Part shown: piece by piece, positions 18,573-41,659 of the stretch
How the letters are laid out: every line of letters starts with the position of its first letter
How positions within the stretch are numbered: the first letter of the stretch is position 1
Assembly: GCA_964458325.1 (NCBI GenBank)
Contig: CAYWIM010000006.1
Span: 9,370 to 73,369, forward strand
From: an uncultured Verrucomicrobiota bacterium
Lineage (GTDB): Bacteria; Verrucomicrobiota; Verrucomicrobiia; Limisphaerales; UBA1319
Direction of reading: 5' to 3'
DNA length: 64,000 nucleotides
Made by a program: the position numbers and the translations under genes
Notes under the pieces: generated by a model
What the model was told of the DNA's origin: nothing
Database searches by the model: none
What the model saw: the letters and a program-made list of their open reading frames with translations, nothing else

Positions 18573-18625
18573 CAGATTTTCCTTTCGTTTTGCGGGAACC
18601 ACTCCCGCGTCTTGATTTCCTAAAG

Positions 18626-18640
18626 GCAAGACGCGTGCCA
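18626..18640 (-). promoter_or_regulatory. sigma54 -24/-12 promoter
   Basis: Minus strand TGGCAC-GCGTC-TTGC, a perfect consensus 54 nt upstream of ATG 18572. Confidence 0.85.
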
Positions 18641-23462: not shown

Positions 23463-24806
23463 ATGAGCAGCGATTTACTCGATTTCATACCCGATGGGGT
23501 GTTCACCGTGGATGCCGACTGGCACATCACGCGGTTCAACCGCGCCGCGGAGCAGATCACGGGCATTCGCCAGGAGGAAGCGATCGGGCGGCGCTGCTGC
23601 GACGTGTTCCATGCGAGCATCTGCGAGAGCGCCTGCACGTTGAGGCGGACCCTGGCGACCGGCAGGCCGGTCGTGAACCAGGTGGTGTATATCGTCGATG
23701 CCCACGGGCGGCGGATCCCCATCAGCATCTCGACCGCGGTCCTCCGCGACGCCGGGGGCAAGGTGGCGGGCGGGATTGAATGTTTCCGGGATTTGCGGAT
23801 CGTCGAGGAGCTCCACCGCCAGGCCGAGGCGCAGGATCAGTTCGCCGACATCATCGGCCGCAGCGCGGCGATGCAGCGCCTTTTCGAGCTCCTCCCGGCG
23901 ATCGCCCAGAGCGACAGCACGGTCCTGATCGAAGGGGCCAGCGGCACGGGCAAAGAGCTCTTTGCACGCGCCATCCACAACCTGTCCCGGCGCCGGGAAA
24001 AGAGGTTCGTGGCGGTCAACTGCGGCGCGCTGCCGGACACGCTGCTCGAGTCCGAGCTCTTTGGATACAAGGCCGGCGCGTTTACCGACGCCCGGCGCGA
24101 CAAGCCCGGCCGGTTCGCCCTGGCCGAAGGAGGCACTCTGTTCCTGGACGAGATCGGAGACGTCTCGCCCGCCATGCAGGTGCGCCTGCTCCGGGTCTTG
24201 CAGGAGCGATCCTACGAGCCGCTCGGGTCCGTCGAGCCGGTCCGGGCGGATGTGCGGTTCGTCGCCGCCACCCACCGATCGCTGAGCCAATGGGTGCGCG
24301 AAGGCAAGTTCCGCGAGGATCTGTTCTATCGGATCCACGTCATCCGACTGGAGCTGCCCTCCCTTCGGGATCGCCGCGAGGACATCCCCTTGCTGATCGA
24401 TCGGTTCATCGCGCTCTTCAATCGCCGCCAGGGCAAGGACATCCACGGCGTCTCCGACGATGTCTTGGCCCGGCTCATGGAACACGATTTCCCGGGCAAC
24501 GTGCGCGAACTCGAGAACATCATCGAACACGCCTTCGTGCTCTGCAAGGGCGGCTTGATCAAAATGGCTCACCTGCCCGTCCAATTACGGCCGGCAAGCG
24601 CCGCCCAGCGGGCCGATAAATCCCATCGGATGACGCTCCGCGCGATGGAGGAGATGATGATCCGAGATGCCCTCCGCCGGAGCGATGGCAGTCGTGCCAA
24701 GACAGCTCGCGAGCTGGGCATCGATCCCAGCACTCTGTTCCGAAAGATCCGGTCGATCCGATCGTCCGCGCATCCCCCCGATGCGCCCGAGTCTCCCGCC
24801 GGATAG
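23463..24806 (+). CDS. PAS-domain sigma54 activator (OrpR-like)
   Basis: PAS with RRCCDVFHASICESAC Cys cluster, GASGTGKE, ESELFGYKAGAFTDA, FPGNVREL, HTH; start trimmed to ATG 23463. Confidence 0.92.
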   Translation: MSSDLLDFIPDGVFTVDADWHITRFNRAAEQITGIRQEEAIGRRCCDVFHASICESACTLRRTLATGRPVVNQVVYIVDAHGRRIPISISTAVLRDAGGKVAGGIECFRDLRIVEELHRQAEAQDQFADIIGRSAAMQRLFELLPAIAQSDSTVLIEGASGTGKELFARAIHNLSRRREKRFVAVNCGALPDTLLESELFGYKAGAFTDARRDKPGRFALAEGGTLFLDEIGDVSPAMQVRLLRVLQERSYEPLGSVEPVRADVRFVAATHRSLSQWVREGKFREDLFYRIHVIRLELPSLRDRREDIPLLIDRFIALFNRRQGKDIHGVSDDVLARLMEHDFPGNVRELENIIEHAFVLCKGGLIKMAHLPVQLRPASAAQRADKSHRMTLRAMEEMMIRDALRRSDGSRAKTARELGIDPSTLFRKIRSIRSSAHPPDAPESPAG

Positions 24807-25004: not shown

Positions 25005-26423
25005 TCAACCTATAGCACAGGATCCCGGGATCGCGCCGGAGGCAGGATCCGCTTGGGGGGGGCGTTTCATCCATCGCCAGATCGTGGTGCGGTCTACCCC
25101 CAGCCGCCGGGCGGCCTCGGCGCGGTTCTGGCGGCACTCCGTGAGCAGCCGTTCCAGTTCTTCGCGGGTGGGTGGCTCGACCGAGGATTTCCGTGAAATA
25201 GGCTCGAGCAGCGCGCTCTCCTTCGGATCGGACTTGCGGCACAGCTGTTCCCGGAGATGCGTCAAGCGGATCTCCACCGGGAGGTCGAACAAGCCGATCT
25301 CTGTGCCCGTGCAGGTGACAAAGGCGTGTTCGATGGCGTTTTCCAACTCCCGCACGTTGCCCGGCCAGCAGAAGTCCATCAGAATGCGGCGGACATCCGC
25401 GGACAGCGCCTGGATTGTCTTGCCGGTCTGGCGGTTGAAAATCTCCATGAAATGCTGGGCCAGCAAGAGAATATCGGTGCCGCGCTCGCGCAAGGGAGGC
25501 AGGTGGATCGGAAAGACGTTCAGGCGGTAGAACAAGTCGGCCCGAAACCGCCCCGCCTCGACCAACCCGTGCAGATCCCGGTGCGTGGCGGTGATGATCC
25601 GGACATCCGCGCGGCGGGTTTGGTTCTCTCCGAGCCGCTCGAATTCGCGGTGCTGGACGACTCGCAGCAGCTTGACTTGCATGAGCGGGCTCAAGTCGCC
25701 GATCTCGTCGAGCATCAAGGTGCCGCGATGCGCCATTTCGAATCGCCCCGGCTTGTCTTTGGCAGCGCCCGTGAATGCGCCTTTGGCGTGCCCGAACAGC
25801 TCGCTCTCGAGCAGAGTCTCCGGCAAGGCGGCGCAATTGAGTTTGACCATGGGGCCGCGGGAGCGGCGGCTCCTTTCGTGGATCTCTTCCGCCACCAGCT
25901 CCTTGCCCGTGCCGGTCTCCCCAACAATCAAAATGGTCGAGTCGGACTCGGCGGCCAGCCGGATGCGATCACGCACCTCCTCCATCGCCGCGCTCTTGCC
26001 CACCAGCTTGCCGGCCGCTGCTTTTTCCGCGGAATGCGCTTGCAGCCGCGCCAGCCGGCTCTCGAGCGCTTTCAAGGGGCGCAAGTCGCTGAAAGTCAGA
26101 ACGCTGCCCATGAGGCATCCGTCATCGCCGACGAGAGGAGAGGTTGCTTTCAAGACCGGCACGCGGCCGCCATCGCACCGTTCGATGCGGCACTCCTCCA
26201 AACGCGGGATCGTCAATGCCAGGCCGATGGGCGCCTTCGAAGAACCGTAGACGCGATGGCAGTCAGCATGGAGCAAACCAATGTCATGACCCGTGACCTC
26301 GATGGCCCGATAACCCGTGAGGATTTCCATGGCCTGATTCCATGCTTGAATGACCGAATGGCGGTCGACGACCACCAGGCCGTGCGGCAGGCTTTCGATG
26401 ATGGTCTGCCAATTCAAGTTCAT
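25005..26423 (-). CDS. PAS-domain sigma54 activator
   Basis: PAS N-terminus, GETGTGKE, ESELFGHAKGAFTGA, WPGNVREL, HTH. Confidence 0.93.
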   Translation of the reverse strand: MNLNWQTIIESLPHGLVVVDRHSVIQAWNQAMEILTGYRAIEVTGHDIGLLHADCHRVYGSSKAPIGLALTIPRLEECRIERCDGGRVPVLKATSPLVGDDGCLMGSVLTFSDLRPLKALESRLARLQAHSAEKAAAGKLVGKSAAMEEVRDRIRLAAESDSTILIVGETGTGKELVAEEIHERSRRSRGPMVKLNCAALPETLLESELFGHAKGAFTGAAKDKPGRFEMAHRGTLMLDEIGDLSPLMQVKLLRVVQHREFERLGENQTRRADVRIITATHRDLHGLVEAGRFRADLFYRLNVFPIHLPPLRERGTDILLLAQHFMEIFNRQTGKTIQALSADVRRILMDFCWPGNVRELENAIEHAFVTCTGTEIGLFDLPVEIRLTHLREQLCRKSDPKESALLEPISRKSSVEPPTREELERLLTECRQNRAEAARRLGVDRTTIWRWMKRPPQADPASGAIPGSCAIG

Positions 26424-26511
26424 CGATCGCCATCAAGCCTACACGGAGATCCGGCGTTCGTCGAGTGGGCCGGGCTTGCTGTTTCCAGCCTGCGCGAAGG
26501 CAGATAACCGC

Positions 26512-26546
26512 GCGTTGCAGGCAACGCTGCATGCAACGGTGCAACC
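26512..26546. promoter_or_regulatory. TGCA/GCAAC-rich putative enhancer
   Basis: GCGTTGC-AG-GCAACGC inverted repeat followed by TGCATGCAAC and TGCAACC, about 140-170 bp upstream of sigma54 site. Confidence 0.4.
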
Positions 26547-26682
26547 GGGCAGAGCGCCGTGAACCCTCGAGCGCACAACCGGGCAGACAGGTTGCGCGCT
26601 CCTGTTTTCGGCAGGCATTTTCCACGATAATCGACGTATTTCACTCTCTCCGCCAACCGCGCCCCCGATGTGATCCCAAGGT

Positions 26683-26697
26683 TGGCATGGCACTTGC
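26683..26697 (+). promoter_or_regulatory. sigma54 -24/-12 promoter of trx-hdr operon
   Basis: TGGCAT-GGCAC-TTGC, 14 nt before ATG 26712. Confidence 0.78.
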
Positions 26698-26711
26698 CTA
26701 TCGAGATTGCG

Positions 26712-27092
26712 ATGAACCGAAGCAGTGAGTCAGAAACCCTTCACGTGGTTGAACTCGGCCCCGCGGAGTTGGATGCCTTCATCCGGGTTGGTGTTGTGCT
26801 GGTCGATTTCTGGGCGCCGTGGTGCGGCCCATGTCGCATGCAGGCGCCGGTGCTCGAGCAGGCAGCGATCGCCCTGGCGCAACGGGCCCGGGTGGGCAAG
26901 GTCAATGTGGACGAGCATCCCCAGATCGCCCAGCGGTATCGGATCGCCGGGATTCCTACCTTGCTGCTTTTCAAGGAGGGCCGCCTGGTTCGCCAGCTTG
27001 TCGGGGTCCAATCTGCCTCCGTTCTGATCTCCGCTCTCGAATCCCTGGTCGAGTCAACGCCGAATGAGTCAGTCAACCCATCCCAACCATGA
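26712..27092 (+). CDS. trxA: Thioredoxin
   Basis: [20 protein letters not shown] motifs. Confidence 0.93.
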
Positions 27093-27340
27093 CACAGAAC
27101 CTGAACGAACTCGTGGCCGCCAAGATCGCCGATGCGCGCGGCAGCGCCTGCCCGGGGCCGCTCCTGGAAGCCAAGAAAGCCATCGGCGGCGTGCCGGTGG
27201 GGCAAATCGTGGAAGTGCAATCCAACGATCCCGGCTCGCGCAACGATCTTCCGGCCTGGGCCCAGCGGGTTGGCCACGAATATCTCGGCTGCCTGGAGGC
27301 GGACGGATACGACCGCCATTTTGTGCGCCGCAAGAAGTGA
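27089..27340 (+). CDS. tusA: TusA/SirA-family sulfurtransferase
   Basis: 83 aa, [10 protein letters not shown] motif, NDPGS. Confidence 0.92.
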
Positions 27341-27352
27341 TCGAGTGATGGG

Positions 27353-27832
27353 ATGAGTTCCGGCTATCAGCCCAAGATCGTGGTCCTGGCCACGGTGGCA
27401 TGCGCTTATCCCGGCGCAGACGCCGTGGGCAAAGCCCACCTCGAATACCCGGCCAACATCAGCATCCTCCGCGTACCTTCGCCCGTGCTCTTCCCTGAGG
27501 ATTTCTATCTGCGGGCGTTTGCCAAGGGCGTCGACGGCATCCTGGTGGCGTCCTGCGGCACGGATTGTCCTTACGAAGGCGTTTACCAGAAGCTATCGCG
27601 CCGGATCGACCGGCTCATCCGGCGCATGAAGGCGGGCGGCCTGGAGATCGAGCGGCTGCGCCTGACGGCCATCTGCACGGTTTGCATCAAGGCATTTCTT
27701 AAGGAGGTCAACCAGATGAACGATAAGCTGGGCGCCTTGGGCCCGGTCAATGCCCAGACAGCCGCTGCGTTGTGGAGGCAATCGGTGGAGGATCTGCGCG
27801 CCACCGGCGGATTGCCCGCGCCAATGGCATAG
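27353..27832 (+). CDS. mvhD: MvhD-like hydrogenase iron-sulfur subunit (variant Cys pattern)
   Basis: CAYPGAD, YPANISILRV, DGILVASC..DCPY, ERLRL. Confidence 0.87.
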   Translation: MSSGYQPKIVVLATVACAYPGADAVGKAHLEYPANISILRVPSPVLFPEDFYLRAFAKGVDGILVASCGTDCPYEGVYQKLSRRIDRLIRRMKAGGLEIERLRLTAICTVCIKAFLKEVNQMNDKLGALGPVNAQTAAALWRQSVEDLRATGGLPAPMA

Positions 27833-27836
27833 CCGT

Positions 27837-29177
27837 ATGGACGATCCGCGCCCAGCTCTTATGCCGGTGGACGTTGTGGTGGTCGGCGGCGGCATCGCGG
27901 GTCTCCAGGCCGCGCTGGACCTGGCCGATCAGGATTATCGGGTGCTGGTGGTCGAGCGGCAGCCCAGCATCGGGGGCAAGATGATTGCCCTGAGCAAGAC
28001 ATTCCCGACGCTCGATTGCTCGAGCTGCATCGCCACGCCGAAGATGTCCGCCGCGTTTCATCACCCTCGCATCGAGATTCGAACCTCGACCGAGGTGGAG
28101 CGGATCGAATCGCGCGACGGTTCGCGCCGGGTGCACCTCTGCAAGAAGCCGACCTGCGTGGTGGACTCGCTATGCATCGGCTGCCGGCTGTGCGAGTACG
28201 CCTGCCCGGTCGAGTATCCGGATCCGTTCGAGGAAGGTCTGGGCGCCCAGCGGGCCATCGCCGTCCCGTTCACCAACGCGCTGCCCCAAAAGGCGGTGCT
28301 GGATCCCGCTCATTGCATCGCCTGCGGCGCCTGCATCAAGGCATGCCCGACCGATGCCATTCGGTTCGATCAGCAGGAGGAGCGCGTCGTGATCGAGGCT
28401 GGGGCCGTGGTGCTGGCCACGGGCTTCGAACTGAATCCCCTCGAGCTCAAGCCCGAGTACGGCGCTGCCAAATCCCGGAACATCCTCTCGCCCATGCAGC
28501 TCGAACGCTTGCTCGCGCCGCACGGACCCTACGGGAGAGTGTTGCGGCCTTCGGATGGCAAGGTGCCCGGCAACGTGGCCTTTGTCCTCTGTGCCGGCTC
28601 GCGCGACGAAAGCATCGGGGTGCCCTACTGCTCGCGCATTTGCTGCATGTATTCCATCAAGGAGGCCATGCTGCTCTCCGGCGCCCTGCCCATCGCCGAC
28701 ATCACGATCTATTACATGGACATCCGGGCGTTTGGCAAAGGGCACGAGCAATTCTATCAGAACGCCCAAGCGATGGGCATCGGCTTCATCAAAGGCAAAG
28801 TGGCCCGGATCGACCTGGCGGACCAGGATGACCTTTCCCTGCGCGTCGAGATGGAGGAGGAGGGCGGCCGGGTCGAAGAGCGCCGGCACGACTTGGTCAT
28901 TCTGGCCCAAGGCGCCATCCCCATCCTCAACCCCGCCCCCGGATTAGGGGTGCCTACCGCCCCCGACGGGTTCCTCCACCAACCCGACGTGGCGCGCGTC
29001 ACGCGCACCGCCCTCGAGGGCGTGTTCGCCGCCGGAGCGGCCCTCGGTCCCAAGGATATCGTGGACAGCATCGTCGAGGCCGGCGCCGCAGCCATGGAGG
29101 CCGCACGGTTCCTCGCGGCGCGTCCCCCAGCGGGCTCGAGCAAACCGGGCCCCGAATCTCGGCTTGTCCCAGCATGA
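27837..29177 (+). CDS. hdrA: HdrA-like flavoprotein 1 (FAD domain plus inserted 2x[4Fe-4S] ferredoxin)
   Basis: VVVGGGIAG, KTFPTLDCSSC, CIGCRLCEYACP, CIACGACIKACP, CAGSR..CSRICCMYSIK, MDIRAFGK. Confidence 0.92.
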   Translation: MDDPRPALMPVDVVVVGGGIAGLQAALDLADQDYRVLVVERQPSIGGKMIALSKTFPTLDCSSCIATPKMSAAFHHPRIEIRTSTEVERIESRDGSRRVHLCKKPTCVVDSLCIGCRLCEYACPVEYPDPFEEGLGAQRAIAVPFTNALPQKAVLDPAHCIACGACIKACPTDAIRFDQQEERVVIEAGAVVLATGFELNPLELKPEYGAAKSRNILSPMQLERLLAPHGPYGRVLRPSDGKVPGNVAFVLCAGSRDESIGVPYCSRICCMYSIKEAMLLSGALPIADITIYYMDIRAFGKGHEQFYQNAQAMGIGFIKGKVARIDLADQDDLSLRVEMEEEGGRVEERRHDLVILAQGAIPILNPAPGLGVPTAPDGFLHQPDVARVTRTALEGVFAAGAALGPKDIVDSIVEAGAAAMEAARFLAARPPAGSSKPGPESRLVPA

Positions 29178-31060
29178 TCCGATCCGATCCAGCCTCTCCA
29201 TCCGACAGCGCCGCGCCGCGCGTGGGCGTCTATGTCTGCCAATGCGGAGGCAACATCAGCGACGTGGTGGACACGCGGGTTGCGGCCGAGACGGCAAAGC
29301 TTATTCCAGGGGTGGCGGTGTCGCGGGTGCATTCGTTCATGTGCTCCGAGCCGGGGCAGGCCATGATCGCGGAGGAAATCCGGCGCGAGGGGCTCAATCG
29401 TGTGGTGGTCGCCTCCTGCTCTCCCTTTCTGCACGAGCTGACCTTCCGCACCGCCGTGCAGCGTGGCGGGCTGAACCCTTATTTCTACGAGCCCGTCAAC
29501 ATCCGCGAGCAGGTCAGCTGGGCGCATCATGGCGATCCGGCGGGCGCCACCGCCAAGGCCATCCGGCTCATCGCTGCGGCCGTCGAGCGGCTCCGGCACG
29601 CCGAACCCCTCGAGCAGATTCGCCTGCCCAATCATCGCCGGGCGCTCGTCATCGGAGGCGGCATTGCGGGCTTGAAGGCCGCCGATGATCTGGCTGGCAA
29701 GGGGCTTCCAGTCGTGCTGGTCGAGCATGGCGCCGAATTAGGCGGGCGGGTGGCCGAGCTCTCTGCGCTCTTCCCCACGGGGGAGGACGCCGCAACCCTC
29801 GCACGTCGATTGGCCCAAGACGTTCGGGATAACCCCAACGTCGAAGTCTTTACCGGCGCCGTCGTGAAGGCAGTGTCGGGATTCCTGGGCAACTATGACG
29901 TCACCGTGGGCCCCGCCGCGGTCCCGCCGGAGGATGCCTCTCTGCCTGGCAAGGGCCAGGACTGCAATCTGACAGTCGGCGCGATCATTGTGGCGACCGG
30001 TTTCGATCCCTACCGCCCCGCGGACGGGGAATATGGTTTTGGGCGGCATCCCCAGGTCATCCTGATGCCCGAGTTCATTGCCCTGCTCGCCCGCAGCGGC
30101 GGCGTCGAGCTCCAGTGGCAGGGCCGGCCTGTCCGGCGGCTCGGTTTCCTGCACTGTGTCGGGAGCCGCCAGATCGAGGGCCTTCACCCGCCCCAGGCCG
30201 ATGGCAAGGTCAACGACTACTGCTCGCGCGTCTGCTGCACCACGGCGCTCCATCAGGCCCTCGCGGCCAAGCGCCGCTTCCCTCGCCTCGACGTGTTTGA
30301 TTTCCACCAGGATATTCGCAGCTACGGCCGCGGGCACGAGGAGATCTATCGCCAGGCATCTCAGGCGGGGATTGTGTTCTTTCGTTTTCACGGAGACGCA
30401 TTGCCGGCCGTCGAGCCCGGCGCCCACGGCGCCCCGATCGAGGTTCGGCTCAAGGACTGGCTGACCTGGGGCGAGGAGATCGTGGCGCCGCTCGATCTGC
30501 TGGTGCTGGCCGTGGGCATGATGCCGCGCAGCAACCAGGAGCTGATCCGATTGCTCAAGCTCCCCACCGGCGCCGATCGGTTCCTGCAGGAAGTCCATCC
30601 CAAGCTGCGTCCGGTCGAGACCGCGGTCAACGGCATCCTCCTGGCCGGCGCCGCCCAGGCCCCCATGACGGTCGACGAGGCGCTCGCATCCGCCTCGGCC
30701 GCCGCCGCGAAGGCTGCCGTGCTGCTCGCGCACGACGAGGTCGAACTCGAACCTTTCAAGGCTCGCGTCGATCCGGCCAAGTGCATCGGGTGCGCGCTCT
30801 GCTTTCCCGAATGCGTTTACGAAGGCGCCCTGGTGCGGGAGGATGGCGAGCGCGAGCGCAAGCCGATCACCCGGGCGAAGGTTAACCCGGGCGCGTGTGT
30901 CGGCTGTGGCGCCTGTGTCCCGGTCTGCCCCACCCGGGCCATCGATCTTCAGGGATGGACGTTGGACCAGTTCGAGGCGATGGTCGACGGCCTGCTTTCC
31001 CCGCCGGCGGCCGCCACCGCTTCGCCATCCGAGGCTCTTTCCCATGGCCAACATCACTGA
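29174..31060 (+). CDS. hdrA: HdrA-like flavoprotein 2 (N-terminal Fe-S domain, FAD domain, C-terminal ferredoxin)
   Basis: VYVCQCGGNI..FMCS..ASCSP..NIREQ, GGGIAG, CVGSR..CSRVCC, EVHPKLRPVET, CIGCALC and CVGCGACVPVCP. Confidence 0.92.
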   Translation: MIRSDPASPSDSAAPRVGVYVCQCGGNISDVVDTRVAAETAKLIPGVAVSRVHSFMCSEPGQAMIAEEIRREGLNRVVVASCSPFLHELTFRTAVQRGGLNPYFYEPVNIREQVSWAHHGDPAGATAKAIRLIAAAVERLRHAEPLEQIRLPNHRRALVIGGGIAGLKAADDLAGKGLPVVLVEHGAELGGRVAELSALFPTGEDAATLARRLAQDVRDNPNVEVFTGAVVKAVSGFLGNYDVTVGPAAVPPEDASLPGKGQDCNLTVGAIIVATGFDPYRPADGEYGFGRHPQVILMPEFIALLARSGGVELQWQGRPVRRLGFLHCVGSRQIEGLHPPQADGKVNDYCSRVCCTTALHQALAAKRRFPRLDVFDFHQDIRSYGRGHEEIYRQASQAGIVFFRFHGDALPAVEPGAHGAPIEVRLKDWLTWGEEIVAPLDLLVLAVGMMPRSNQELIRLLKLPTGADRFLQEVHPKLRPVETAVNGILLAGAAQAPMTVDEALASASAAAAKAAVLLAHDEVELEPFKARVDPAKCIGCALCFPECVYEGALVREDGERERKPITRAKVNPGACVGCGACVPVCPTRAIDLQGWTLDQFEAMVDGLLSPPAAATASPSEALSHGQHH

Positions 31061-31355
31061 TGCCCACAAGGCCGCGCTCCGGCAGTTCCGCGAGCGCCAC
31101 AAGCAGGCCGGCCTCGAGCCCGGCAAGGCCGTGGCGCGCTTTCGCCACGAGCGCAAGGCGGTGGAATCCGCTCTGAAACAAGGCCCCGCCACGGTCCCCC
31201 AGATCGCGCAGGCCGCGGGGCTTCCCGCCCATGTGGTGCTGTGGCACCTGGCCGGCATGCGCAAATATGGCGCCGCGCGCGAGGTCGATATGGAGGGCGA
31301 CTATCCCCGCTACGAGTGGGTCGCCGCTTCCGCCAAAACCGCTGCCCCATCCTAA
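31044..31355 (+). CDS. Winged helix-turn-helix protein
   Basis: 103 aa, PATVPQIAQAAGL..VVLWHLAGMRKYG wHTH pattern; overlaps hdrA2 stop. Confidence 0.68.
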   Translation: MANITDAHKAALRQFRERHKQAGLEPGKAVARFRHERKAVESALKQGPATVPQIAQAAGLPAHVVLWHLAGMRKYGAAREVDMEGDYPRYEWVAASAKTAAPS

Positions 31356-31366
31356 TCCATCCTGCC

Positions 31367-32539
31367 ATGGCTCATGTCGTCCAGTCCGATTTGATCCGAG
31401 ACCTCAAAGCGTTCGGTGCGCGCGATATCGACTCCTGTTTCAACTGCGGCAATTGCACCGCTGTCTGTCCCTTGTCGAAGGGTGAGGTGGCGTTCCCTCG
31501 CCGGATCATCCGCTATGCGCAAACGGGGATGGAGGAGCGCTTGCGGGGCTCGATCGAGCCGTGGCTCTGCTACTACTGCGGCGAATGCTCCGAGACCTGT
31601 CCGCGCAACGCCCAGCCCGGCGAGCTGATGATGGCCGCGCGGCGTTACCTGACGGCGGCGTATGACTGGACGGGCCTGGGGCGCCGGCTCTACCTCGATG
31701 CGCGGATCGAGCTGGGCGCCATCCTGGGTCTGGCCGCGCTGGTTATTTTCTTGTTCATGTTGCTGGGCGGCCCGTTGACGACCGAGCTGACGCCGGAGGG
31801 GGGCGTGCGGCTGAACACGTTTGCCCCGGCGCACGTTATCGAACGGCTGGATTGGGGCATGGGCGGCCTGCTGGCACTCCTCCTGCTCTCGAATGTCTGG
31901 AGGATGCATCGCTGGGTCATGAGCCGGGAGGCGGGTTTGAAAGCCCCCATGGGCGCCTACGTGCAAGGATTATCCACGCTGGCAGCGCACTTCTTCACGC
32001 AGAAACAATGGCTGTCGTGCCAATCGGCCGCCGCGCCCGTCGCCAGCAGCCGGTGGTTCAAACACTTCAGCATCTTTGCCGGCTACGTCACCATGTTCGT
32101 CCTGATCGTGGTGTTTCTGCGCTGGTTCCAGACGGACGCCGTGCATCCGGTGTGGCATCCCCAGCGCTGGCTGGGCTACTTGGCGACCGGGGCCTTGCTC
32201 TACGGGGTCAGCAATGCGCTGCTCGGACGCTGGCGCCGGCGCGAGGAGATCCACAAGCACTCGCACCCGAGCGATTGGATCTTCCTGGTGCTGCTGCTGC
32301 TGACCACGGTGACGGGCATCCTGGTTCACATCTTCCGCATCCACGGCCTGCCTTATCCCACGTATGTCACCTACGCGATCCACATGGCCGTGCTCGTGCC
32401 CATGCTGGTGATCGAGGTGCCTTTCGGCAAATGGGCGCATCTGGCGTATCGCCCGGTCGCCCTCTATTTGCAGGAGGTGCTGCGCCATGCGCGCGCCATC
32501 CAGGCTGCGAAAGCCAAACCGGAACCTCAACCCGCATGA
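31367..32539 (+). CDS. QmoC/HdrC-HdrE-like membrane Fe-S cytochrome b subunit
   Basis: CFNCGNCTAVCP and CYYCGECSETCP, then multiple TM helices with His residues and PFGKWAH motif. Confidence 0.85.
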   Translation: MAHVVQSDLIRDLKAFGARDIDSCFNCGNCTAVCPLSKGEVAFPRRIIRYAQTGMEERLRGSIEPWLCYYCGECSETCPRNAQPGELMMAARRYLTAAYDWTGLGRRLYLDARIELGAILGLAALVIFLFMLLGGPLTTELTPEGGVRLNTFAPAHVIERLDWGMGGLLALLLLSNVWRMHRWVMSREAGLKAPMGAYVQGLSTLAAHFFTQKQWLSCQSAAAPVASSRWFKHFSIFAGYVTMFVLIVVFLRWFQTDAVHPVWHPQRWLGYLATGALLYGVSNALLGRWRRREEIHKHSHPSDWIFLVLLLLTTVTGILVHIFRIHGLPYPTYVTYAIHMAVLVPMLVIEVPFGKWAHLAYRPVALYLQEVLRHARAIQAAKAKPEPQPA

Positions 32540-32582
32540 GTCACCAGATCCCAAAGCACTCTGTTTATCTAACCAACCTCTT

Positions 32583-32957
32583 ATGAGCAACGAACCAAGC
32601 ACCAGGAAAATGGCGATCGTCTGCAACCACGCGGACGCCACCGGCGTCATGCCCACACTCATCATGGCCTCCTCGGCCCTGAGCCTGGACTATGAAGTCC
32701 TCGTCTTCTTCAGCCCGACCGGCGCGCCCGCCCTCGTCCAAGGCGAGCTCGAGAAGCTCCGGGGCATGAAGGGGCTGCCCGATCCCGTCAAACTCTACAA
32801 CGATATCGTCCAGCTGGGCGGGCGGATCATCTTTTGCGAGCTGGCCCTGGAAGCAAAGGATATCCGGCGCGAAGATCTCCGGGAAGGCGTCGAGATCATG
32901 AAAGCGCCGCCGTTTCTCATGGCCGCCGAGGGCGCGACCATGACGTTCGCCTTTTAG
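32583..32957 (+). CDS. DsrE/DsrF-like sulfur carrier
   Basis: PTLIMASSALS..EVLVFF, IFCELAL conserved Cys. Confidence 0.83.
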   Translation: MSNEPSTRKMAIVCNHADATGVMPTLIMASSALSLDYEVLVFFSPTGAPALVQGELEKLRGMKGLPDPVKLYNDIVQLGGRIIFCELALEAKDIRREDLREGVEIMKAPPFLMAAEGATMTFAF

Positions 32958-33013
32958 ACGTGCGCCGCAGAATGGCGGCCAGCGCAAGGACCTGAACAAC
33001 TAACCAACACACC

Positions 33014-33370
33014 ATGAAAATACTGATCCTATTCAACCGTCCCCCCTACGACGGGACGGATGTGACTTGGAACGGGCTTCGCTTGGCAGGGAAACTCTTG
33101 GAGGGAGGGCAAACGGTAAGGCTTTTCCTGATGAATGACGCCGTGGATATGGCGCGGGACGCATGCAAGCCGCCAGATGGCTACGACCAGGATCTCTCCC
33201 AGATGCTCCGACAACTTATCGCGCAAGGTGTCCCCGTCAAGGTCTGTGGAACCTGCATGACCCGCTGTGGAATTCACAAGAACGCTCCATACTTCGAGGG
33301 CGCCGAAAGCGCCACGATGACCGCTCTCGCCGAGTGGGTTGTCGACAGCGAGAAGACGATCGCGTTTTAG
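33014..33370 (+). CDS. DsrE/YchN-family protein
   Basis: NRPPYDG..NGLRLA, FLMNDAV, VCGTC..CG. Confidence 0.88.
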   Translation: MKILILFNRPPYDGTDVTWNGLRLAGKLLEGGQTVRLFLMNDAVDMARDACKPPDGYDQDLSQMLRQLIAQGVPVKVCGTCMTRCGIHKNAPYFEGAESATMTALAEWVVDSEKTIAF

Positions 33371-33439
33371 CCTATCCAACCATCTTCCCGGAACGAACCG
33401 CTGTCCAGAATGGATTGCGGCTCGTATGAAAAGGAGCGC

Positions 33440-34084
33440 ATGAGCAAAATCAACCATCTATCCGTCCTCGCCATCGCACACCGGGCCTGGTGGCTTTGGT
33501 CGGCGGGCGCCGCTTTGGGTGCCGTTCTGGCGGGCGGCCTCGCCCAGGCCCAAGATGTGGCCAAGACCAACACAGCCGCAGCCATGAGTGCAAGCGTCCA
33601 TCCCATCGGCCATGTGCGCAGGCAGGCCAGCCGAGCGTGGATCGTCCTGGAACCGCGGTATCAGCCCGGCCTGCGGGGCCTGGAGGGATTCTCCCACATC
33701 CATGTGCTGTGGTGGTTTCATCACAACGACACCCCCGAAAAGCGTGCCACGCTCCAGGTTCATCCGCGCGGAAATCCTCGCAACCCATTGACGGGCGTCT
33801 TTGCCACCCGCTCGCCTGCGCGGCCCAATCTGATCGGTTTGACGCTCTGCCGGATCGTCTCGATCGAGCAGCACGAGGTGGAGATCGAGGAGATCGACGC
33901 CCTGGACGGGACGCCCGTCCTGGACATCAAGCCGTTCATTCCCGCGTTCGACACGGCGAGCGGGGTTCGAGGGCCCGACTGGATCAAGAACGGATTTGGA
34001 CCTCTGCCCGAAAGCCCGAAGGCGGGTCGAAAGCTCTCCGCACCCGGACCGTCGAGCCCAGCCCATCCACCGCCCCGCCAATGA
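33440..34084 (+). CDS. trmO: TrmO/TsaA-family SAM-binding protein with N-terminal signal-peptide-like extension
   Basis: GLEGFSHIHVLWW, GVFATRSPARPNLIGLT, DALDGTPVLDIKP; RBS AAGGAG; hydrophobic N-terminus ending AQA-Q. Confidence 0.87.
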   Translation: MSKINHLSVLAIAHRAWWLWSAGAALGAVLAGGLAQAQDVAKTNTAAAMSASVHPIGHVRRQASRAWIVLEPRYQPGLRGLEGFSHIHVLWWFHHNDTPEKRATLQVHPRGNPRNPLTGVFATRSPARPNLIGLTLCRIVSIEQHEVEIEEIDALDGTPVLDIKPFIPAFDTASGVRGPDWIKNGFGPLPESPKAGRKLSAPGPSSPAHPPPRQ

Positions 34085-34148
34085 ACGCCTGCGAAATGCC
34101 GCTGCAGAACGCCAGCCGCCGCTGGGGGGATCTCGGACGACATCAGTG

Positions 34149-34471
34149 ATGCAAAGCTCATTGGATTGCATTCCCTGTTTCGTGTCGCAGGCCCTGAGCG
34201 TGGCGCGGTTGGGGAGCGCCGACGAACCGGTGCGCGAACGGATTCTGCGCGAGGCGCTCCGGGCCGCCAGCGAGGCCGACCTCAGCCTGCCCCCGGTCCG
34301 GTTTGGCCATTGGATCCATCGGCGCGTCCGTGAACTGACCGGACAGGCCGATCCTTACCTGCCCATCAAACCACCTTCCTGTTCAAAGTGAAGTGTCCCG
34401 TCGTGGCCCGGCATATCGGCGATCCGGTCGGGAATCTGGTCCTGCACCGCAATATCCCCCACCTCGATTAA
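34149..34471 (+). pseudogene. ARMT1-like/DUF89 phosphatase, internally deleted and frameshifted
   Basis: Frame 1 MQSSLDCIPCFVSQAL...ADPYLPIK, then another frame TFLFKVKCPVVARHIGDPVGNLVL (DUF89 C-terminus); the central part is missing. Confidence 0.78.
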
Positions 34472-34518
34472 TTGCATTATGCAATGTAAATGGCAGCTGT
34501 AATCATGCATAATGCAAT
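34471..34518. promoter_or_regulatory. Enhancer palindrome pair TGCAT-W-ATGCA
   Basis: ATTGCAT-T-ATGCAAT (34471-34485) and TGCAT-A-ATGCAAT (34506-34518), centres 33 bp apart, followed by an AT-rich spacer. Confidence 0.65.
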
Positions 34519-34605
34519 TCCTAAAAATGAGTGATTCACCGATTGTAGATCTATATATCATTAGTAAACAGCATATTATATAATTTATTCGTGATGACAT
34601 AAAAT

Positions 34606-34620
34606 GGGCACGCCGTATGC
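34606..34620 (+). promoter_or_regulatory. sigma54 -24/-12 promoter of ORP-like operon
   Basis: GGGCAC-GCCGT-ATGC, 13 nt before ATG 34634. Confidence 0.65.
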
Positions 34621-34633
34621 TTTATATCGAGCG

Positions 34634-35068
34634 ATGACGATTGCCTTGCCAATCTGCGAAGGCCGGATCTCGCCGGTCCTGGATGTGGCATGCCGGTTCA
34701 TGGTCGTCGAGATCGCCAACGGGCGGGAGATCAGCCGGCGGGAAGTGTTGATGGGCGAGACGCAGCCGGCGCTGCTGGTCAAGGGCATCAAGGAAACGGG
34801 CGCCCAGGCATTGCTCTGTGGCGCGATGTCTCAACCGATTGCCCATTGGCTGGAAAGCGCCGGAGTCCGCGTCTGGCCGCATATCTGCGGCGACGCCGAA
34901 GCGGTGCTGCAGGCCTTTTTGTCGGATACGCTGGGGCGATCGGAATTCCGCATGCCCGGATGTTGCGCGGGGCACTGCGGATGGCATCGCAACCGCTTTC
35001 GTCGTCGCGGCCGTCTCCGGCGCAACCCCAATCCAACACCCAATCCAACACCCAAATCATCCCAATGA
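34634..35068 (+). CDS. NifB/NifX-family (FeMo-co binding domain) protein
   Basis: IALPICEGRISPVLDVA, LLCGAMS, Cys/Arg-rich tail. Confidence 0.8.
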   Translation: MTIALPICEGRISPVLDVACRFMVVEIANGREISRREVLMGETQPALLVKGIKETGAQALLCGAMSQPIAHWLESAGVRVWPHICGDAEAVLQAFLSDTLGRSEFRMPGCCAGHCGWHRNRFRRRGRLRRNPNPTPNPTPKSSQ

Positions 35069-35424
35069 AATTTGCCGTGACATCGCAGGGGCCCGACCGG
35101 GAATCGCTCGTCGATCCGCGGTTCGGCCGGGCGCGTTATTTTCGGGTCACTGACACTGAAACCGGCCAGCAGACGGTCGTGGACAACGCATCGCGGGTGG
35201 ATGCGGTCCAGGGGGCAGGGATTCAGGCGGCCCAGGCATTGGCGAGCCTGGGCGTTCAGGCGCTGGTGACGGGCCATGTCGGTCCCAAGGCCTGGGCGAC
35301 TCTTCAGGCGGCGCGCATCGAGGTGTATGGAGTCGATGGCGGCACCGTTGCGCAGGCCATGGAGGCGTTTATGGCGCGAAAGCTTGCCCCGCTGTCGGGC
35401 GCGAATGTGGAAGGGCACTGGTGA
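35065..35424 (+). CDS. NifB/NifX-family protein (Orange-protein/MTH1175-like)
   Basis: MKFAVTS..VDPRFGRARYF, GAGIQAAQ, LVTGHVGPKA. Confidence 0.9.
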   Translation: MKFAVTSQGPDRESLVDPRFGRARYFRVTDTETGQQTVVDNASRVDAVQGAGIQAAQALASLGVQALVTGHVGPKAWATLQAARIEVYGVDGGTVAQAMEAFMARKLAPLSGANVEGHW

Positions 35425-35462
35425 TCCAAACCAGCGTTGAAAATGAGCGAAAGGAGTTCATT

Positions 35463-35867
35463 ATGCCAGGTGGAGATCGAACAGGCCCGATGGGCCAGGG
35501 ACCGATGACCGGCTGGGGGGCCGGGTATTGCGGGGGTTCGGGCCAGCCGGGCTGGCTCAGCCAGAGGCAGGGCCGATGGGCGGGCCGAGGCCAAGGCGCA
35601 GGACGCGGCGGGGGTGGCGGCTGGCGAGGCGGGGGTGGGGGATGGGGCTTTCGCCACTGGTTTCACGCGACCGGATTGACCGGTTGGCAGCGAGCCGCGG
35701 CGAATAGGCCGGCATGGGGCGGGGTAGGGGCTGCGCCTGCCGGAACAGCCGATCTTCCGGGCGCGTCTCCGGATCAGGAACTGGCGTGGCTCAAGCAGCA
35801 GGCCAGCCAGTTGGAAACGGGGCTCGAACAAATCCGCAAACGGATTGCCGAACTCGATCCAGGATGA
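35463..35867 (+). CDS. DUF5320-like Gly-rich protein
   Basis: MPGGDRTGPMGQGPMTGWGAGYC, Gly/Arg/Trp-rich middle, C-terminal coiled coil (ELAWLKQQASQLE). Confidence 0.8.
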   Translation: MPGGDRTGPMGQGPMTGWGAGYCGGSGQPGWLSQRQGRWAGRGQGAGRGGGGGWRGGGGGWGFRHWFHATGLTGWQRAAANRPAWGGVGAAPAGTADLPGASPDQELAWLKQQASQLETGLEQIRKRIAELDPG

Positions 35868-36880
35868 GGATCGCGATTGCGAGCGGCAAGGGGGGGACCG
35901 GCAAAACGACCGTGGCCACCAACCTGGCATGGCTGGCCTCGCAGAACGGCCTGGCGGCCGCGTATCTGGATTGCGACACGGAGGAGCCCAACGGCCATCT
36001 GTTCCTCCGGCCCGCCATCGACCAGCGGCGGGAGATCGTGCGGATGATCCCGCAAGTCGATCCGGCCCGGTGCACCCTCTGCGGCCAATGCGGCGAGATC
36101 TGCCAGTACAGCGCCATCGTTTGTCTGGAACAGAAGGTTCTGGTGTTTCCCGAGCTGTGCCATAGCTGCGGCGGATGCGCGTTGGTTTGCCCGACGGGGG
36201 CGATCACCGAAACGCCCCGCGCATTGGGGGTTGTCGAGACGGGACGCTGCGGCGGGCTCGGGTTTGTCCAGGGCCGTCTGAATATCGGGGAAGTCTCGAG
36301 CCCGCCCTTGATCCGGGCCGTCCGGCAGGCAGCGCCGCCGGCCGATCTGCTGTTGTATGACGCCCCGCCGGGCACGGCATGTCCGATGATCGAAACGGTG
36401 CGGGGCGCCGACTATGTGGTGCTGGTCACCGAGCCCACTCCATTTGGGCTGCACGATCTGCGGCTGGCGTGGCAGGTGATCAAGTCGCTCCAGATGCAGT
36501 GCGGCGTGGTGGTGAATCGCGCCCTGGTGGGCGAGACGGAAGCGCGACAGTTCTGTGAGCAGGCTCGGATTCCCATCCTGGCGGAGATACCGGACATCCT
36601 GGCCATAGCCGAGGCCTACTCGGAGGGGAAGCTGGCGATCGAAGCCGTGCCAGGATTGCAGCGCATCTTCGCCCGTCTGCTGTTGGATGTGACGTCCGCC
36701 GCGGGAGCCAACGCCCTTCCCGAGGCTGTGCAGCGGAGCCTGCGCTCGATCGCCGATCTTCAGGCGGATCCCCCCGGGTGCGGCCGCCCGGCGCCCGGCG
36801 CTCCCTCGTGCATTTTGGCATTGCGAGGGAATCCGCGAGCGCCCAACCGCGCTCGCGCCATCTCCTCTCCGGATCCTTGA
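35864..36880 (+). CDS. MinD-type P-loop ATPase with inserted 2x[4Fe-4S] ferredoxin
   Basis: ASGKGGTGKTT, DCDTEEPNGHLF, CTLCGQCGEIC, CHSCGGCALVCP, DAPPGTACP, VTEPTPFGLHDL. Confidence 0.9.
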   Translation: MRIAIASGKGGTGKTTVATNLAWLASQNGLAAAYLDCDTEEPNGHLFLRPAIDQRREIVRMIPQVDPARCTLCGQCGEICQYSAIVCLEQKVLVFPELCHSCGGCALVCPTGAITETPRALGVVETGRCGGLGFVQGRLNIGEVSSPPLIRAVRQAAPPADLLLYDAPPGTACPMIETVRGADYVVLVTEPTPFGLHDLRLAWQVIKSLQMQCGVVVNRALVGETEARQFCEQARIPILAEIPDILAIAEAYSEGKLAIEAVPGLQRIFARLLLDVTSAAGANALPEAVQRSLRSIADLQADPPGCGRPAPGAPSCILALRGNPRAPNRARAISSPDP

Positions 36881-36882
36881 CC

Positions 36883-38166
36883 ATGCCCGAGCTCGTCGTC
36901 ATCAGCGGCAAAGGCGGAACGGGGAAGACCTCGATGGTGGCATCGCTGGCCGTGCTGGCGCGCCAGGCGGTGCTGGCCGACTGCGATGTGGATGCGGCGG
37001 ATTTGCACCTGGTGCTCGAGCCGCAGATCCGGCGCCGGCAGACCTTTACTGGCGGGAACAAGGCGCGGATCAAACCGGGCCACTGCACGGCCTGCGGCAA
37101 GTGCGAGGAGCTCTGCCGCTTCGATGCCGTCTATTTTGACGGTCCCGGCAACGGGCAGGCCCCGCGGACGTTCCGGATCGATCCGGCCGCCTGCGATGGA
37201 TGCGGCGTGTGCGTCCGCTTTTGCGCCGACAATGCCATCGAGTTCGGCCCCGCGGTCGATGGCGAGTGGTTTGTGTCCGACACCCGCTGCGGTCCGATGG
37301 TCCACGCGCAGCTGCGGCCCGGGGCCGGCAACTCCGGCAAACTGGTCTCGATCGTTCGAAGCCAGGCCCAGCAGATCGCCCGGGAGCGCGGAGGCGGTTT
37401 GATACTGATCGACGGATCGCCGGGAATCGGCTGCCCGGTCATCGCCTCGATCACGGGCGCCTCGCGAGTTCTGGCGGTCACCGAGCCGACGCTTTCCGGC
37501 GAGCACGATCTCGATCGGGTGTTTCTCCTGGTGCGGCACTTCGGCATTCCGGTGACGGTCTGCGTGAACAAGTGCAATCTGAATGCCGAAATTGCCCAGC
37601 GCATCGAGCGAAAGGCGCAAGCCGCCGGAGCGGCGATTCTGCCGCCCATCCCGTACGATTCCGCCGTCACCGATGCGCAGCGGAAAGGCATGGCGGTCGT
37701 CGAATTGGGCGACAGCCCCGCGGCTCGGGCCATCCGGCAAGGATGGTCCGCCTTATGTCAGCAAATCTCAATCAAATCTATGGAAGAATCCAAAACCAAT
37801 CCCACCATGAAAATCGCCATTCCCCTCGCGGGCGGATGCCTGGCCGATCACTTTGGACACTGCGAGCAATTCGCGCTGGTCGATGCCGATCCTGACACGA
37901 AAGCCATTCTTCAAATCACCCGGGTCACGCCGCCGCCGCACGAGCCGGGATTGTTGCCCCGCTGGCTCCATGAGCAAGGCGTCCAGGTCATCATCGCCGG
38001 GGGGATGGGCCAGCGGGCATTGAGCCTGTTTGCCGAGAACGGCATCACAGTCCGAAGCGGGCTGCCCGGCAGGACCGCGGAAGAATCGGCCAAGGCTTTC
38101 CTGGAGGGGGGCCTGAGCTCCGGACCCGCTGCCTGCGAACGCCACGAACGCGGATGCCACGGATGA
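36883..38166 (+). CDS. Second ferredoxin-MinD ATPase, in frame with C-terminal NifX domain
   Basis: SGKGGTGKTS, DCDVDAADLHL, two ferredoxin motifs, DGSPGIGCP; from ATG 37807 MKIAIP..HFGHCEQF..GGMGQRA. Confidence 0.87.
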   Translation: MPELVVISGKGGTGKTSMVASLAVLARQAVLADCDVDAADLHLVLEPQIRRRQTFTGGNKARIKPGHCTACGKCEELCRFDAVYFDGPGNGQAPRTFRIDPAACDGCGVCVRFCADNAIEFGPAVDGEWFVSDTRCGPMVHAQLRPGAGNSGKLVSIVRSQAQQIARERGGGLILIDGSPGIGCPVIASITGASRVLAVTEPTLSGEHDLDRVFLLVRHFGIPVTVCVNKCNLNAEIAQRIERKAQAAGAAILPPIPYDSAVTDAQRKGMAVVELGDSPAARAIRQGWSALCQQISIKSMEESKTNPTMKIAIPLAGGCLADHFGHCEQFALVDADPDTKAILQITRVTPPPHEPGLLPRWLHEQGVQVIIAGGMGQRALSLFAENGITVRSGLPGRTAEESAKAFLEGGLSSGPAACERHERGCHG

Positions 38167-38283
38167 ATCCTGGCGCTGGGCTGTGAATGTTGCATCCGAA
38201 ACCCGGCATCCTGAAGCGCCTTCCGACGACAGCGCTCGCGCGGGCGCCGAATATCGTTCGCGCGTTCGGATTCAGTTTAGGCA

Positions 38284-39222: not shown

Positions 39223-39229
39223 ATCCACC

Positions 39230-39997: not shown

Positions 39998-40047
39998 CCC
40001 CCCCATCCGCCAAAGCTGGATCCAATCCGATATCGCACGGCGAGTCG

Positions 40048-40584: not shown

Positions 40585-40667
40585 CAAGAAAGAGGCTCGA
40601 TCCATGTCGATGAAAATCATCGGTCTCGTTGGCAAACAGTAACCTCGCGAATCACAACCTTTCCCTC

Positions 40668-41585: not shown

Positions 41586-41659
41586 CCCAACAGGATGAGA
41601 ACCCCGACTTCATTCGCGCGCTCACCCGCCGCCAGCGCGGCCCCGAGACCCTCCTCCCG

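Follow-up and report, generated by a model that had tools for sequence, protein, structure and literature searches.

The window analysed here, a 64-kb stretch of contig CAYWIM010000006.1 from an uncultured Verrucomicrobiota bacterium, carries a tightly packed operon that encodes two HdrA flavoproteins and a QmoC-like membrane subunit together with the sulfur carriers TusA and DsrE, a winged-helix protein and an MvhD-like subunit with altered cysteines. The module resembles a hybrid: its membrane core is that of QmoABC and of a hydrogenase-linked sister type, its TusA/DsrE delivery is like that of the sHdr system, and it fails the defining features of each. All our functional statements derive from sequence, synteny and models. 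On this footing, the chances are about even that the operon encodes a menaquinone-linked, possibly bifurcating membrane complex that passes electrons to, or takes them from, protein-bound sulfane sulfur or thiols.

The operon and its HdrA/QmoC core

The operon consists of nine plus-strand genes (26712-33370), identified from open reading frames (ORFs) and domain profiles. They encode thioredoxin (Trx), TusA, an MvhD-like protein, HdrA1, HdrA2, a winged helix-turn-helix (wHTH) protein, a QmoC-like protein, a DsrE_2-type protein and DsrE. Since the distances between the genes are only -17 to +56 nt, they look co-transcribed. An earlier note on this DNA had listed the same nine genes, and the ORFs and domains were found where it placed them. 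Its title was correct for all nine but left unnamed a TrmO_N gene (33410-34084), which lies inside its range and may be co-transcribed with the operon. TrmO-like genes also lie near the module in two of the loci surveyed below (L038 and L074; L numbers denote surveyed loci).

The same note had stated that HdrB, Apr, Dsr, LbpA and hydrogenase are missing from the window. A Pfam scan of ORFs, as concatenated proteins, took in most of the 64 kb and agrees with this statement: among the scanned ORFs there was no match to CCG (HdrB, PF02754), NIR_SIR (DsrAB), GCV_H (the lipoate-binding protein LbpA), the large or small subunit of [NiFe] hydrogenase, or an AprA-type flavoprotein.

HdrA2 matches the solved methanogen HdrA chains (5ODC and 8RVU) with E-values of about 1e-117 to 1e-120. 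Its alignment to 5odc_A falls into two stretches that skip chain residues about 235-311, the inserted ferredoxin domain. HdrA2 contains an N-terminal four-cysteine domain, a flavin adenine dinucleotide (FAD) domain, a CSxxCC cluster motif and a C-terminal 2x[4Fe-4S] ferredoxin domain, without the inserted ferredoxin domain. HdrA1 contains a thioredoxin-reductase-like FAD domain, an inserted 2x[4Fe-4S] ferredoxin domain, a CxGxRD...CSxxCC cluster motif and a DCSSC motif, without the N-terminal and C-terminal domains of methanogen HdrA. Because the missing domains complement each other, HdrA1 and HdrA2 together rebuild the domain set of one HdrA. The GxGxxG (FAD) and CxGxR(D/Q)...CSxxCC motifs are kept in both subunits, and the FAD and cluster motifs of bifurcating HdrA enzymes are all present in the window proteins.

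The QmoC-like protein is a fusion of an HdrC-like 2x[4Fe-4S] domain, which has HdrC matches in the Protein Data Bank (PDB), to a membrane domain. It has eight cysteines for two [4Fe-4S] clusters and at least four hydrophobic segments, and four of its histidines (H233, H321, H339 and H358) are conserved at 94% or more. Judging from these sequence features, the membrane domain is probably a di-haem b quinone-interacting module. The best hit of the protein is the NCBIfam qmoC equivalog model (NF038018), matched over its full length with 202.5 bits, below the cut-off of 300.

A TusA-linked type and its hydrogenase-linked sister

To describe the distribution of the module, relatives of the QmoC-like protein were surveyed in one genome per species, with at least 596 matches. 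Synteny was counted in the 80 best loci, in which ORFs were called by a simple procedure and matched to the window proteins; only recurrent neighbour families were annotated. The order TusA, MvhD-like, HdrA1, HdrA2, wHTH, QmoC (T-type) was identified in 59 of the 80 best loci, and many of these end at contig ends. Loci of the hydrogenase type are called M-type. According to the record titles, T-type carriers include Anaerolineales and other Chloroflexota, Planctomycetota including Thermoguttaceae, Verrucomicrobiota, Phycisphaerae, Bacteroidales, Acidobacteriota, Gemmatimonadales, Actinomycetota, Krumholzibacteriota, deltaproteobacterial metagenome-assembled genomes (MAGs) and an Archaeoglobales MAG. 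The hosts belong largely to anaerobic heterotroph lineages. The best match, with 81% identity, is to a Verrucomicrobia MAG, and the closest Verrucomicrobia relative (L001) has Trx in the operon, as in the window.

The M-type comprises 16 loci, mostly from Bacteroidales and also from Methanoperedens and Elusimicrobia, with the order HdrA1, QmoC, HdrA2, MvhD. In 11 of the 16, the order continues with the small and large subunits of a [NiFe] hydrogenase (MvhAG) and a maturation protease. MvhAG was found in none of the 59 T-type loci, and TusA, DsrE and wHTH in none of the 16 M-type loci. In a quick neighbour-joining tree of QmoC, calculated without support values, the two types interleave by host lineage. 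One Bacteroidales MAG (CAYXUU01) carries both types (L006 and L013), and another locus (L080) has two hydrogenase-type cores back to back. The presence of both types in one MAG indicates that they have distinct functions; together with the interleaving of QmoC, it indicates that the core is shared and the input module exchanged. The core subunits of the T-type are close relatives of the hydrogenase-linked HdrA/HdrA/QmoC, differently equipped and not a separate lineage.

The exchange can be followed in the MvhD-fold subunit. M-type MvhD keeps the full cysteine set of solved MvhD (CCNWC, VMC, GGCH and GDCHY), whereas in the T-type the canonical cysteines are partly or wholly gone. An invariant CxxC motif is present in 46 of 46 T-type proteins versus 0 of 14 M-type proteins. 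In the window protein, C17, C68 and C72 are kept from the canonical set, S43 and T14 replace two others, and the CxxC motif reads C108-T-V-C111. All five cysteines are kept in 120 close homologues of the window subfamily. In Chloroflexota the CxxC alone remains, at times with one further cysteine, so that these proteins have too few cysteines to hold a conventional four-cysteine cluster. An AlphaFold2 model of the window protein (pLDDT 84.6; TM 0.81 to solved MvhD 5odc_D) retains the MvhD fold. In the model, C108 comes right after strand beta-4 and C111 just before the helix that starts at residue 112, and the two share one strand-end edge of the sheet with C17, C68 and C72. The T-type MvhD-like subunit thus has a thiol-bearing site at the place where electrons from the hydrogenase enter in the M-type, and is encoded beside thiol-based sulfur carriers.

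The M-type complex has been noted in Ca. Methanoglobus, with a proposed role in electron bifurcation from H2 to menaquinone and ferredoxin (bioRxiv 10.1101/2022.12.01.518715; 10.1101/2023.09.08.556235). The MvhAGD-HdrA-HdrA-QmoC complexes of Ca. Methanoglobus nevadensis and hypatiae, Bacteroidales, Methanoperedens and Elusimicrobia share identical HdrA1, HdrA2 and QmoC cofactor motifs with the window module. They have a [NiFe] hydrogenase and an MvhD with canonical cysteines and are without TusA, DsrE and wHTH, while the window module is the reverse. One possibility is that the T-type also bifurcates electrons from H2 to menaquinone and ferredoxin, with a hydrogenase encoded elsewhere in the genome and with TusA and DsrE being unrelated or used for cofactor maturation. 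The shared core motifs and the interleaved tree fit this possibility. However, we consider it very unlikely, given the uniform lack of MvhAG in T-type loci, the loss of the MvhD cluster cysteines, which in Chloroflexota leaves the CxxC with or without one further cysteine, the occurrence of both types in one MAG (L006 and L013), and a linkage to TusA, DsrE and wHTH that is kept across phyla.

Sulfur carriers are the partners that accompany the T-type core across phyla. TusA is encoded directly upstream of the MvhD-like protein in 48 of the 59 T-type loci, and a DsrE-family gene lies up- or downstream in about 48 of the 59. The active-site cysteines of the carriers are invariant, with Cys21 of TusA conserved in 46 of 46 orthologues and Cys85 of the DsrE_2-type protein in 33 of 33. 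The second DsrE (33014-33370) has a CxxC-type motif that is common to the DsrE neighbours (family c9) in related loci; this second copy is lineage-specific and not general. Trx was matched in only two T-type loci (L001 and L078), inside the operon in L001 and at a distance in L078. It is therefore a lineage-specific first gene and not a general partner.

The wHTH protein is a conserved component specific to the sulfur-carrier type, being present in 56 of the 59 T-type loci and in 0 of the 16 M-type loci. Its family is small, with 355 representative clusters among 1.84 billion proteins. The AlphaFold2 model (pLDDT 82.5) displays a winged helix of generic MarR/ArsR-like type, extended at the N-terminus by two helices. 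A fold search against the PDB returned only generic winged-helix regulators, a sequence search against the PDB returned no match, and the only Pfam family matched, weakly, was HTH_20. We considered the protein as an analogue of DsrC and rejected this assignment, as it contains no cysteines and the fold search gave no DsrC-like fold.

Conserved cysteines that are specific to the T-type were also sought as a catalytic site in the core subunits. In alignments of T-type and M-type HdrA1, HdrA2 and QmoC, no such consistently conserved cysteine was found. There is one partial case, an insertion column of HdrA2 with a cysteine in 64% of the T-type loci, which is missing from the window protein. In a second subtype, made up of 11 T-type loci (L048, 4316-7027; L005, L009, L044, L047, L055, L060, L064, L067, L070 and L081), HdrA1 is about 900 aa long. 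A GltD/NfnB-like module for NAD(P) binding (NF009410, 509.8 bits) is inserted there, giving an HdrL-like architecture. This insert suggests NAD(P)H as a redox partner of the long-HdrA1 subtype. The window subtype, which has no GltD-like insert, more likely uses ferredoxin via the inserted ferredoxin domain of HdrA1.

Among the recurrent neighbours of the T-type are YeeE/YedE (Sulf_transp), accompanied by another TusA and DsrE, in 6 loci, rhodaneses in 4, an SQR-like flavoprotein right after QmoC in 2 and HdrD-like CCG proteins in 3 of 59. In four Anaerolineales loci (L032, L034, L057 and L063, about 10100-12400), QmoC is followed by DsrE, TusA, YeeE/YedE and DsrE, an arrangement that resembles the 'YTD' cluster discussed as a sulfur-disproportionation marker. 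No Apr family is among the recurrent neighbour families of the 59 T-type loci.

These neighbourhoods bear on two further alternatives, the first being that the operon encodes an ordinary QmoABC that serves the adenosine 5'-phosphosulfate (APS) reductase AprAB, encoded elsewhere in the genome, in sulfate reduction or sulfite oxidation. The QmoABC complex known from sulfate reducers and green sulfur bacteria has a proposed menaquinone link and confurcation mechanism (PMC3333476). The window module resembles it in having two HdrA-related FAD/Fe-S subunits and a QmoC in which an HdrC-like di-cluster domain is fused to an HdrE-like haem-b membrane domain; qmoC is also the best NCBIfam model for the membrane subunit, and the window covers only part of the genome. 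However, the window protein scores well below the equivalog cut-off of the qmoC model. QmoB has a fused C-terminal MvhD domain, whereas HdrA2 in the window ends after its C-terminal ferredoxin domain and the MvhD-like protein, with its altered cysteines, is encoded by a separate upstream gene. HdrA2 is also much closer to methanogen HdrA, and the window module has an extra winged-helix subunit. In place of AprAB, the partners in the 59 loci are TusA, DsrE and wHTH, and the carriers are mostly MAGs of Anaerolineales, Bacteroidales, Planctomycetota and Verrucomicrobiota. In addition, 'type II' Qmo has been reported in organisms without Apr and Dsr (PMC10504309). An ordinary QmoABC is therefore extremely unlikely in our judgement.

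The second alternative is a variant of sHdr, in which sulfane sulfur delivered by TusA and DsrE would be oxidised to sulfite and the electrons passed to the quinone pool. A TusA/DsrE relay beside an Hdr-like complex is the hallmark of sHdr systems (PMC11094781), and the YeeE and rhodanese neighbours resemble the loci of sulfur oxidisers. In sHdr-LbpA, the relay also includes rhodanese, and the Hdr-like complex beside it handles cytoplasmic sulfane sulfur, as is proposed here. However, that system needs HdrB1/B2 with CCG domains, HdrC1/C2 and a lipoate-binding protein and has no membrane subunit, while none of those genes was found in the window. The rarity of CCG proteins in T-type loci, the lack of a subunit able to add oxygen to sulfur and the largely anaerobic heterotroph hosts also argue against it, and we regard an sHdr variant as highly improbable. 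The methanogen HdrABC-MvhAGD complex (5ODC, 8RVU) shares the HdrA domain set and the MvhD fold with the window module. It differs in that the window HdrA is split over two polypeptides, HdrB is missing, the HdrC-like domain forms one protein with a membrane cytochrome and the MvhD cluster cysteines are replaced.

Together, these comparisons bear out the view of the earlier note that the module is not canonical QmoABC, sHdr or Hdr-Mvh, with a sub-threshold qmoC score and no HdrB, LbpA or hydrogenase among the scanned ORFs of the window, and they trace its gene order through many phyla. Several of its points need amendment. The complex is distinct in this sense only, as the core does not form a separate lineage; the subunit named MvhD has the fold but not the canonical cysteines; and TusA and DsrE, with their sulfur-related neighbours, are upheld as conserved gene partners, while Trx is not a general one. 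The note had also called the module undescribed. We found no description of the TusA/DsrE/wHTH-linked type or of the CxxC switch in the openly searchable literature, subscription journals lying outside its reach, but 'type II' Qmo proteins of organisms without Dsr or Apr, of unknown function, were already mentioned by Neukirchen et al. 2023 (PMC10504309).

Regulation and genomic surroundings

Table 1 Features of the operon and its control region in the window
Feature	Position	Strand	Evidence or remark
Sigma-54 enhancer-binding protein, PAS (PAS_4) + AAA+ + HTH_8	23463-24806	+	Pfam Sigma54_activat E = 8.9e-69
Divergent sigma-54 enhancer-binding protein, PAS + AAA+ + HTH_8	25005-26423	-	Pfam Sigma54_activat E = 7.9e-71
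Repeated TGCAAC/GTTGCA half-sites	26510-26550		Read from sequence, upstream of promoter
Sigma-54 -24/-12 element, TGGCAT-N5-TTGC	26683-26697	+	14 nt before Trx ATG, 1 mismatch
Thioredoxin, WCGPC motif	26712-27092	+	NCBIfam TIGR01068 106.7 bits, cut-off 96.8
TusA-family sulfur carrier, Cys21 in CPGP	27089-27340	+	Pfam TusA E = 3.6e-18
MvhD/FlpD-like subunit	27353-27832	+	Pfam FlpD E = 7.4e-23
HdrA1 (QmoA-like), 446 aa	27837-29177	+	NCBIfam HdrA2 model positions 141-561, 449 bits
HdrA2 (QmoB-like, no fused MvhD domain), 628 aa	29174-31060	+	Solved HdrA 5odc_A E = 3.1e-117
Winged-helix protein, 103 aa, zero Cys	31044-31355	+	Overlaps HdrA2 3' end by 17 nt
QmoC-like membrane subunit	31367-32539	+	NCBIfam qmoC 202.5 bits, cut-off 300
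DsrE2-like (DrsE_2) sulfur-transfer protein, Cys85	32583-32957	+	Pfam PF13686 E = 3.5e-9
DsrE/TusD-family protein, motif VCGTCxxxC	33014-33370	+	Pfam DsrE E = 1.9e-18
TrmO_N-domain protein, signal-peptide-like N-terminus	33410-34084	+	Pfam TrmO_N E = 1.9e-34

The bare -24/-12 pattern is at chance level in the window (6 matches versus 5.3 expected). The element before the operon is credible because it lies near the Trx ATG, adjoins two sigma-54 activators and has equivalents between the activator gene and the operon in L001 (TGGCAC-N5-TTGCA, perfect, 5206), L078 (4064) and L079 (1883). Sigma-54 control of the operon, as the earlier note had proposed, is thus plausible. Scans for terminators and sigma-70 promoters across the operon gave nothing above shuffled background, and Rfam and tRNA scans of the window for RNA genes were empty.

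The divergent activator (25005-26423) probably switches on the operon, and its orthologue in L001 occupies the same divergent position (731 bits). The TGCAAC/GTTGCA half-sites, which also precede the L001 promoter, are putative activator-binding sites. Homologues of the other activator (23463-24806) adjoin the module in L004, L044, L079 and L081. Its PAS domain holds a cysteine-rich stretch, CCDVFHASICESAC, and this part of the protein (RRCCDVFHASICESACTL) could be a redox- or metal-sensing site.

Different regulators accompany the T-type in different lineages, namely sigma-54 activators in 13 loci, two-cysteine ArsR-type regulators directly upstream of TusA in 21 and divergent LysR regulators in 14. 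The nearest solved relatives of the ArsR-type regulators include NolR, HlyU, YgaV, BigR and SqrR. The BigR/SqrR/YgaV/HlyU group contains known persulfide sensors, and in other bacteria operons for sulfide and persulfide stress are governed by regulators of the BigR/SqrR group.

Upstream there is a third sigma-54 system. Its genes encode a sensor histidine kinase (15243-16709) and a response-regulator-type sigma-54 activator (18922-20325), and its TGGCAC-N5-TTGC element, a perfect one, is on the minus strand (18626-18640). The first 4 nt of an ORF (17946-18629; longest call, with a TTG start) for a small, Gly/Gln-rich, secreted-looking protein fall within this element. Because of this overlap, the real start of the ORF is probably a downstream Met (MKPKK). 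Just upstream of the two PAS-type activators is the gene (21404-23272) for a secreted protein of 622 aa, which has five CxxCH motifs for haem binding and weak MtrC/MtrF-like and cytochrome c7 matches. Further upstream, a 1532-aa protein (2642-7240) with BcrAD/BadFG-type ATPase domains and DUF2229 looks like a CoA-enzyme activase, possibly an electron-activating ATPase for a radical enzyme. N_methyl/DUF1559 proteins, typical of the Planctomycetes-Verrucomicrobia-Chlamydiae (PVC) group, are also encoded in the window.

The block downstream of the operon (33410-44826) encodes the TrmO_N protein, two NifX-like (Nitro_FeMo-Co) proteins, a DUF5320 protein and two MinD/CbiA P-loop ATPases that carry inserted 4Fe-4S ferredoxin domains; the second also has a NifX-like domain at its C-terminus. 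Also encoded there are a ZIP transporter and a methyltransferase, a membrane protein of family DUF4405, a radical-SAM protein that contains a winged helix, a 1-Cys peroxiredoxin and a protein with a metallo-beta-lactamase fold. Members of the MinD-Fer4, NifX-like, radical-SAM, DUF134, DUF89 and TrmO families are again found close to the module in loci from unrelated phyla (L019, L024, L035, L038, L047, L063, L074 and L079). It is possible that this block is functionally linked to the module, perhaps in cofactor maturation. Within it, the region 34148-34600 holds a short ORF fragment and an AT-rich stretch. The fragment, which starts with MQSSLDCIPCF, resembles the N-terminus of DUF89/ARMT1-like proteins and stops after about 80 codons; a full-length DUF89/ARMT1-like protein is encoded downstream of the L001 operon. 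The AT-rich stretch of ~200 bp that follows has palindromes such as TTGCATTATGCAA and may be either a scar left by recombination or a region that regulates the NifX-like genes downstream.

Proposed mechanism and implications

What the data show is the gene content with its cofactor motifs, the cysteine switch and how widely the module is conserved. In the mechanistic model that we propose, the joining of the subunits in a single complex, the chemistry at a persulfide or dithiol, the bifurcation and the direction of the reaction are inferred. HdrA1 and HdrA2 would dock onto QmoC, and QmoC would exchange electrons with the menaquinone pool. In the M-type, MvhAG would feed the core via a [2Fe-2S] MvhD; in its place, the T-type has the CxxC-containing MvhD-like subunit, wHTH, TusA and DsrE. 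Protein-bound sulfane sulfur or thiols would exchange electrons with the complex at the CxxC subunit. Sulfur derived from S0, polysulfide, thiosulfate or sulfide oxidation would ride as a persulfide on DsrE and TusA, and the persulfide would be reduced to H2S at the CxxC site, or formed there in reverse. In this step, an HdrA cluster beside the CxxC may reduce a disulfide or persulfide in one-electron steps, by analogy with ferredoxin:thioredoxin reductase and HdrB, which both perform Fe-S-dependent disulfide reduction. The HdrA flavin would then couple the mid-potential sulfur couple to the high-potential menaquinone and to a low-potential carrier, which would be ferredoxin in the window subtype and NAD(P)H in the subtype with the GltD-like insert. 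The operon would be switched on by PAS-type sigma-54 activators here; other lineages would use BigR/SqrR-group ArsR or LysR regulators.

Textbook potentials are near -270 mV for sulfane sulfur/H2S, near -75 mV for menaquinone, and near -450 mV or below for ferredoxin. Because the sulfur couple is roughly midway in potential, both bifurcation (sulfide oxidation) and confurcation (sulfur reduction) would be possible. The anaerobic heterotroph hosts and the YeeE import genes make us lean slightly to reduction or detoxification, and the SQR-like neighbours are compatible with either direction. A link between the quinone pool and a cytoplasmic S-S substrate is also made by DsrMK(JOP)/DsrC and HdrDE, in the Dsr case with the substrate on a small protein. 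There, catalysis is carried out by CCG subunits (DsrK and HdrD) without an HdrA flavoprotein, and the carrier is DsrC, not TusA or DsrE.

It is tempting to go further and speculate that the module represents a new class of flavin-based bifurcating enzyme, one that reversibly links a protein persulfide or thiol, via TusA/DsrE and the repurposed CxxC of MvhD, to menaquinone and to ferredoxin or NAD(P)H. We hold this stronger version only tentatively and regard it as possible but doubtful.

The module might instead serve thiol/disulfide homeostasis or sulfane-sulfur detoxification, as a quinone- or ferredoxin-linked reductase whose CxxC subunit would act on disulfides in Trx, TusA or DsrE, with neither bifurcation nor energy conservation. 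This explanation differs from the preferred one mainly in its energetics. It is consistent with Trx as the first gene of the window operon, the invariant CxxC, the relatives of BigR/SqrR-group regulators that flank 21 loci and the 1-Cys peroxiredoxin downstream (42753-43487). However, Trx is missing from nearly all other loci, and a split HdrA with all its clusters plus a membrane quinone module would be costly for a housekeeping reductase. We therefore consider a purely homeostatic role rather unlikely.

Several points weigh against the menaquinone-linked sulfur complex that we favour. The scheme is built wholly from sequence, synteny and models, and no subunit has a known S-S-cleaving site such as the CCG clusters of HdrB. 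Since menaquinol alone thermodynamically cannot reduce a persulfide, a second donor or the oxidative direction is required. The five conserved cysteines of the MvhD-like protein in the window subfamily could hold a re-wired Fe-S cluster instead of a redox-active dithiol, TusA and DsrE can also take part in sulfur transfer for biosynthesis, and the wHTH protein could be a plain transcription factor. The search for Apr, Dsr, HdrB and hydrogenase covered the window, which is only part of the genome, and the annotation of recurrent neighbour families alone could have missed rare Apr or Dsr neighbours.

HdrA/Qmo-type complexes have a central role in anaerobic energy conservation, yet only for a minority of the versions outside methanogens are the partners known. 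The module described here occurs in hundreds of species from more than 12 phyla, many of which are abundant heterotrophs of sediments, the subsurface and digesters that are not counted as sulfur-cycling. With canonical cluster cysteines lost and a CxxC gained, its MvhD fold offers a concrete, mutable site. If the module does couple carrier-bound sulfane sulfur to the quinone pool, it would represent a widespread, overlooked step of the sulfur cycle and a new class of substrate for HdrA-based bifurcation. If it is indeed a bifurcating enzyme class, Anaerolineae, Bacteroidales, Planctomycetota, Verrucomicrobiota and others would gain an unrecognised energy-conserving route for sulfur reduction or sulfide oxidation in the cytoplasm.

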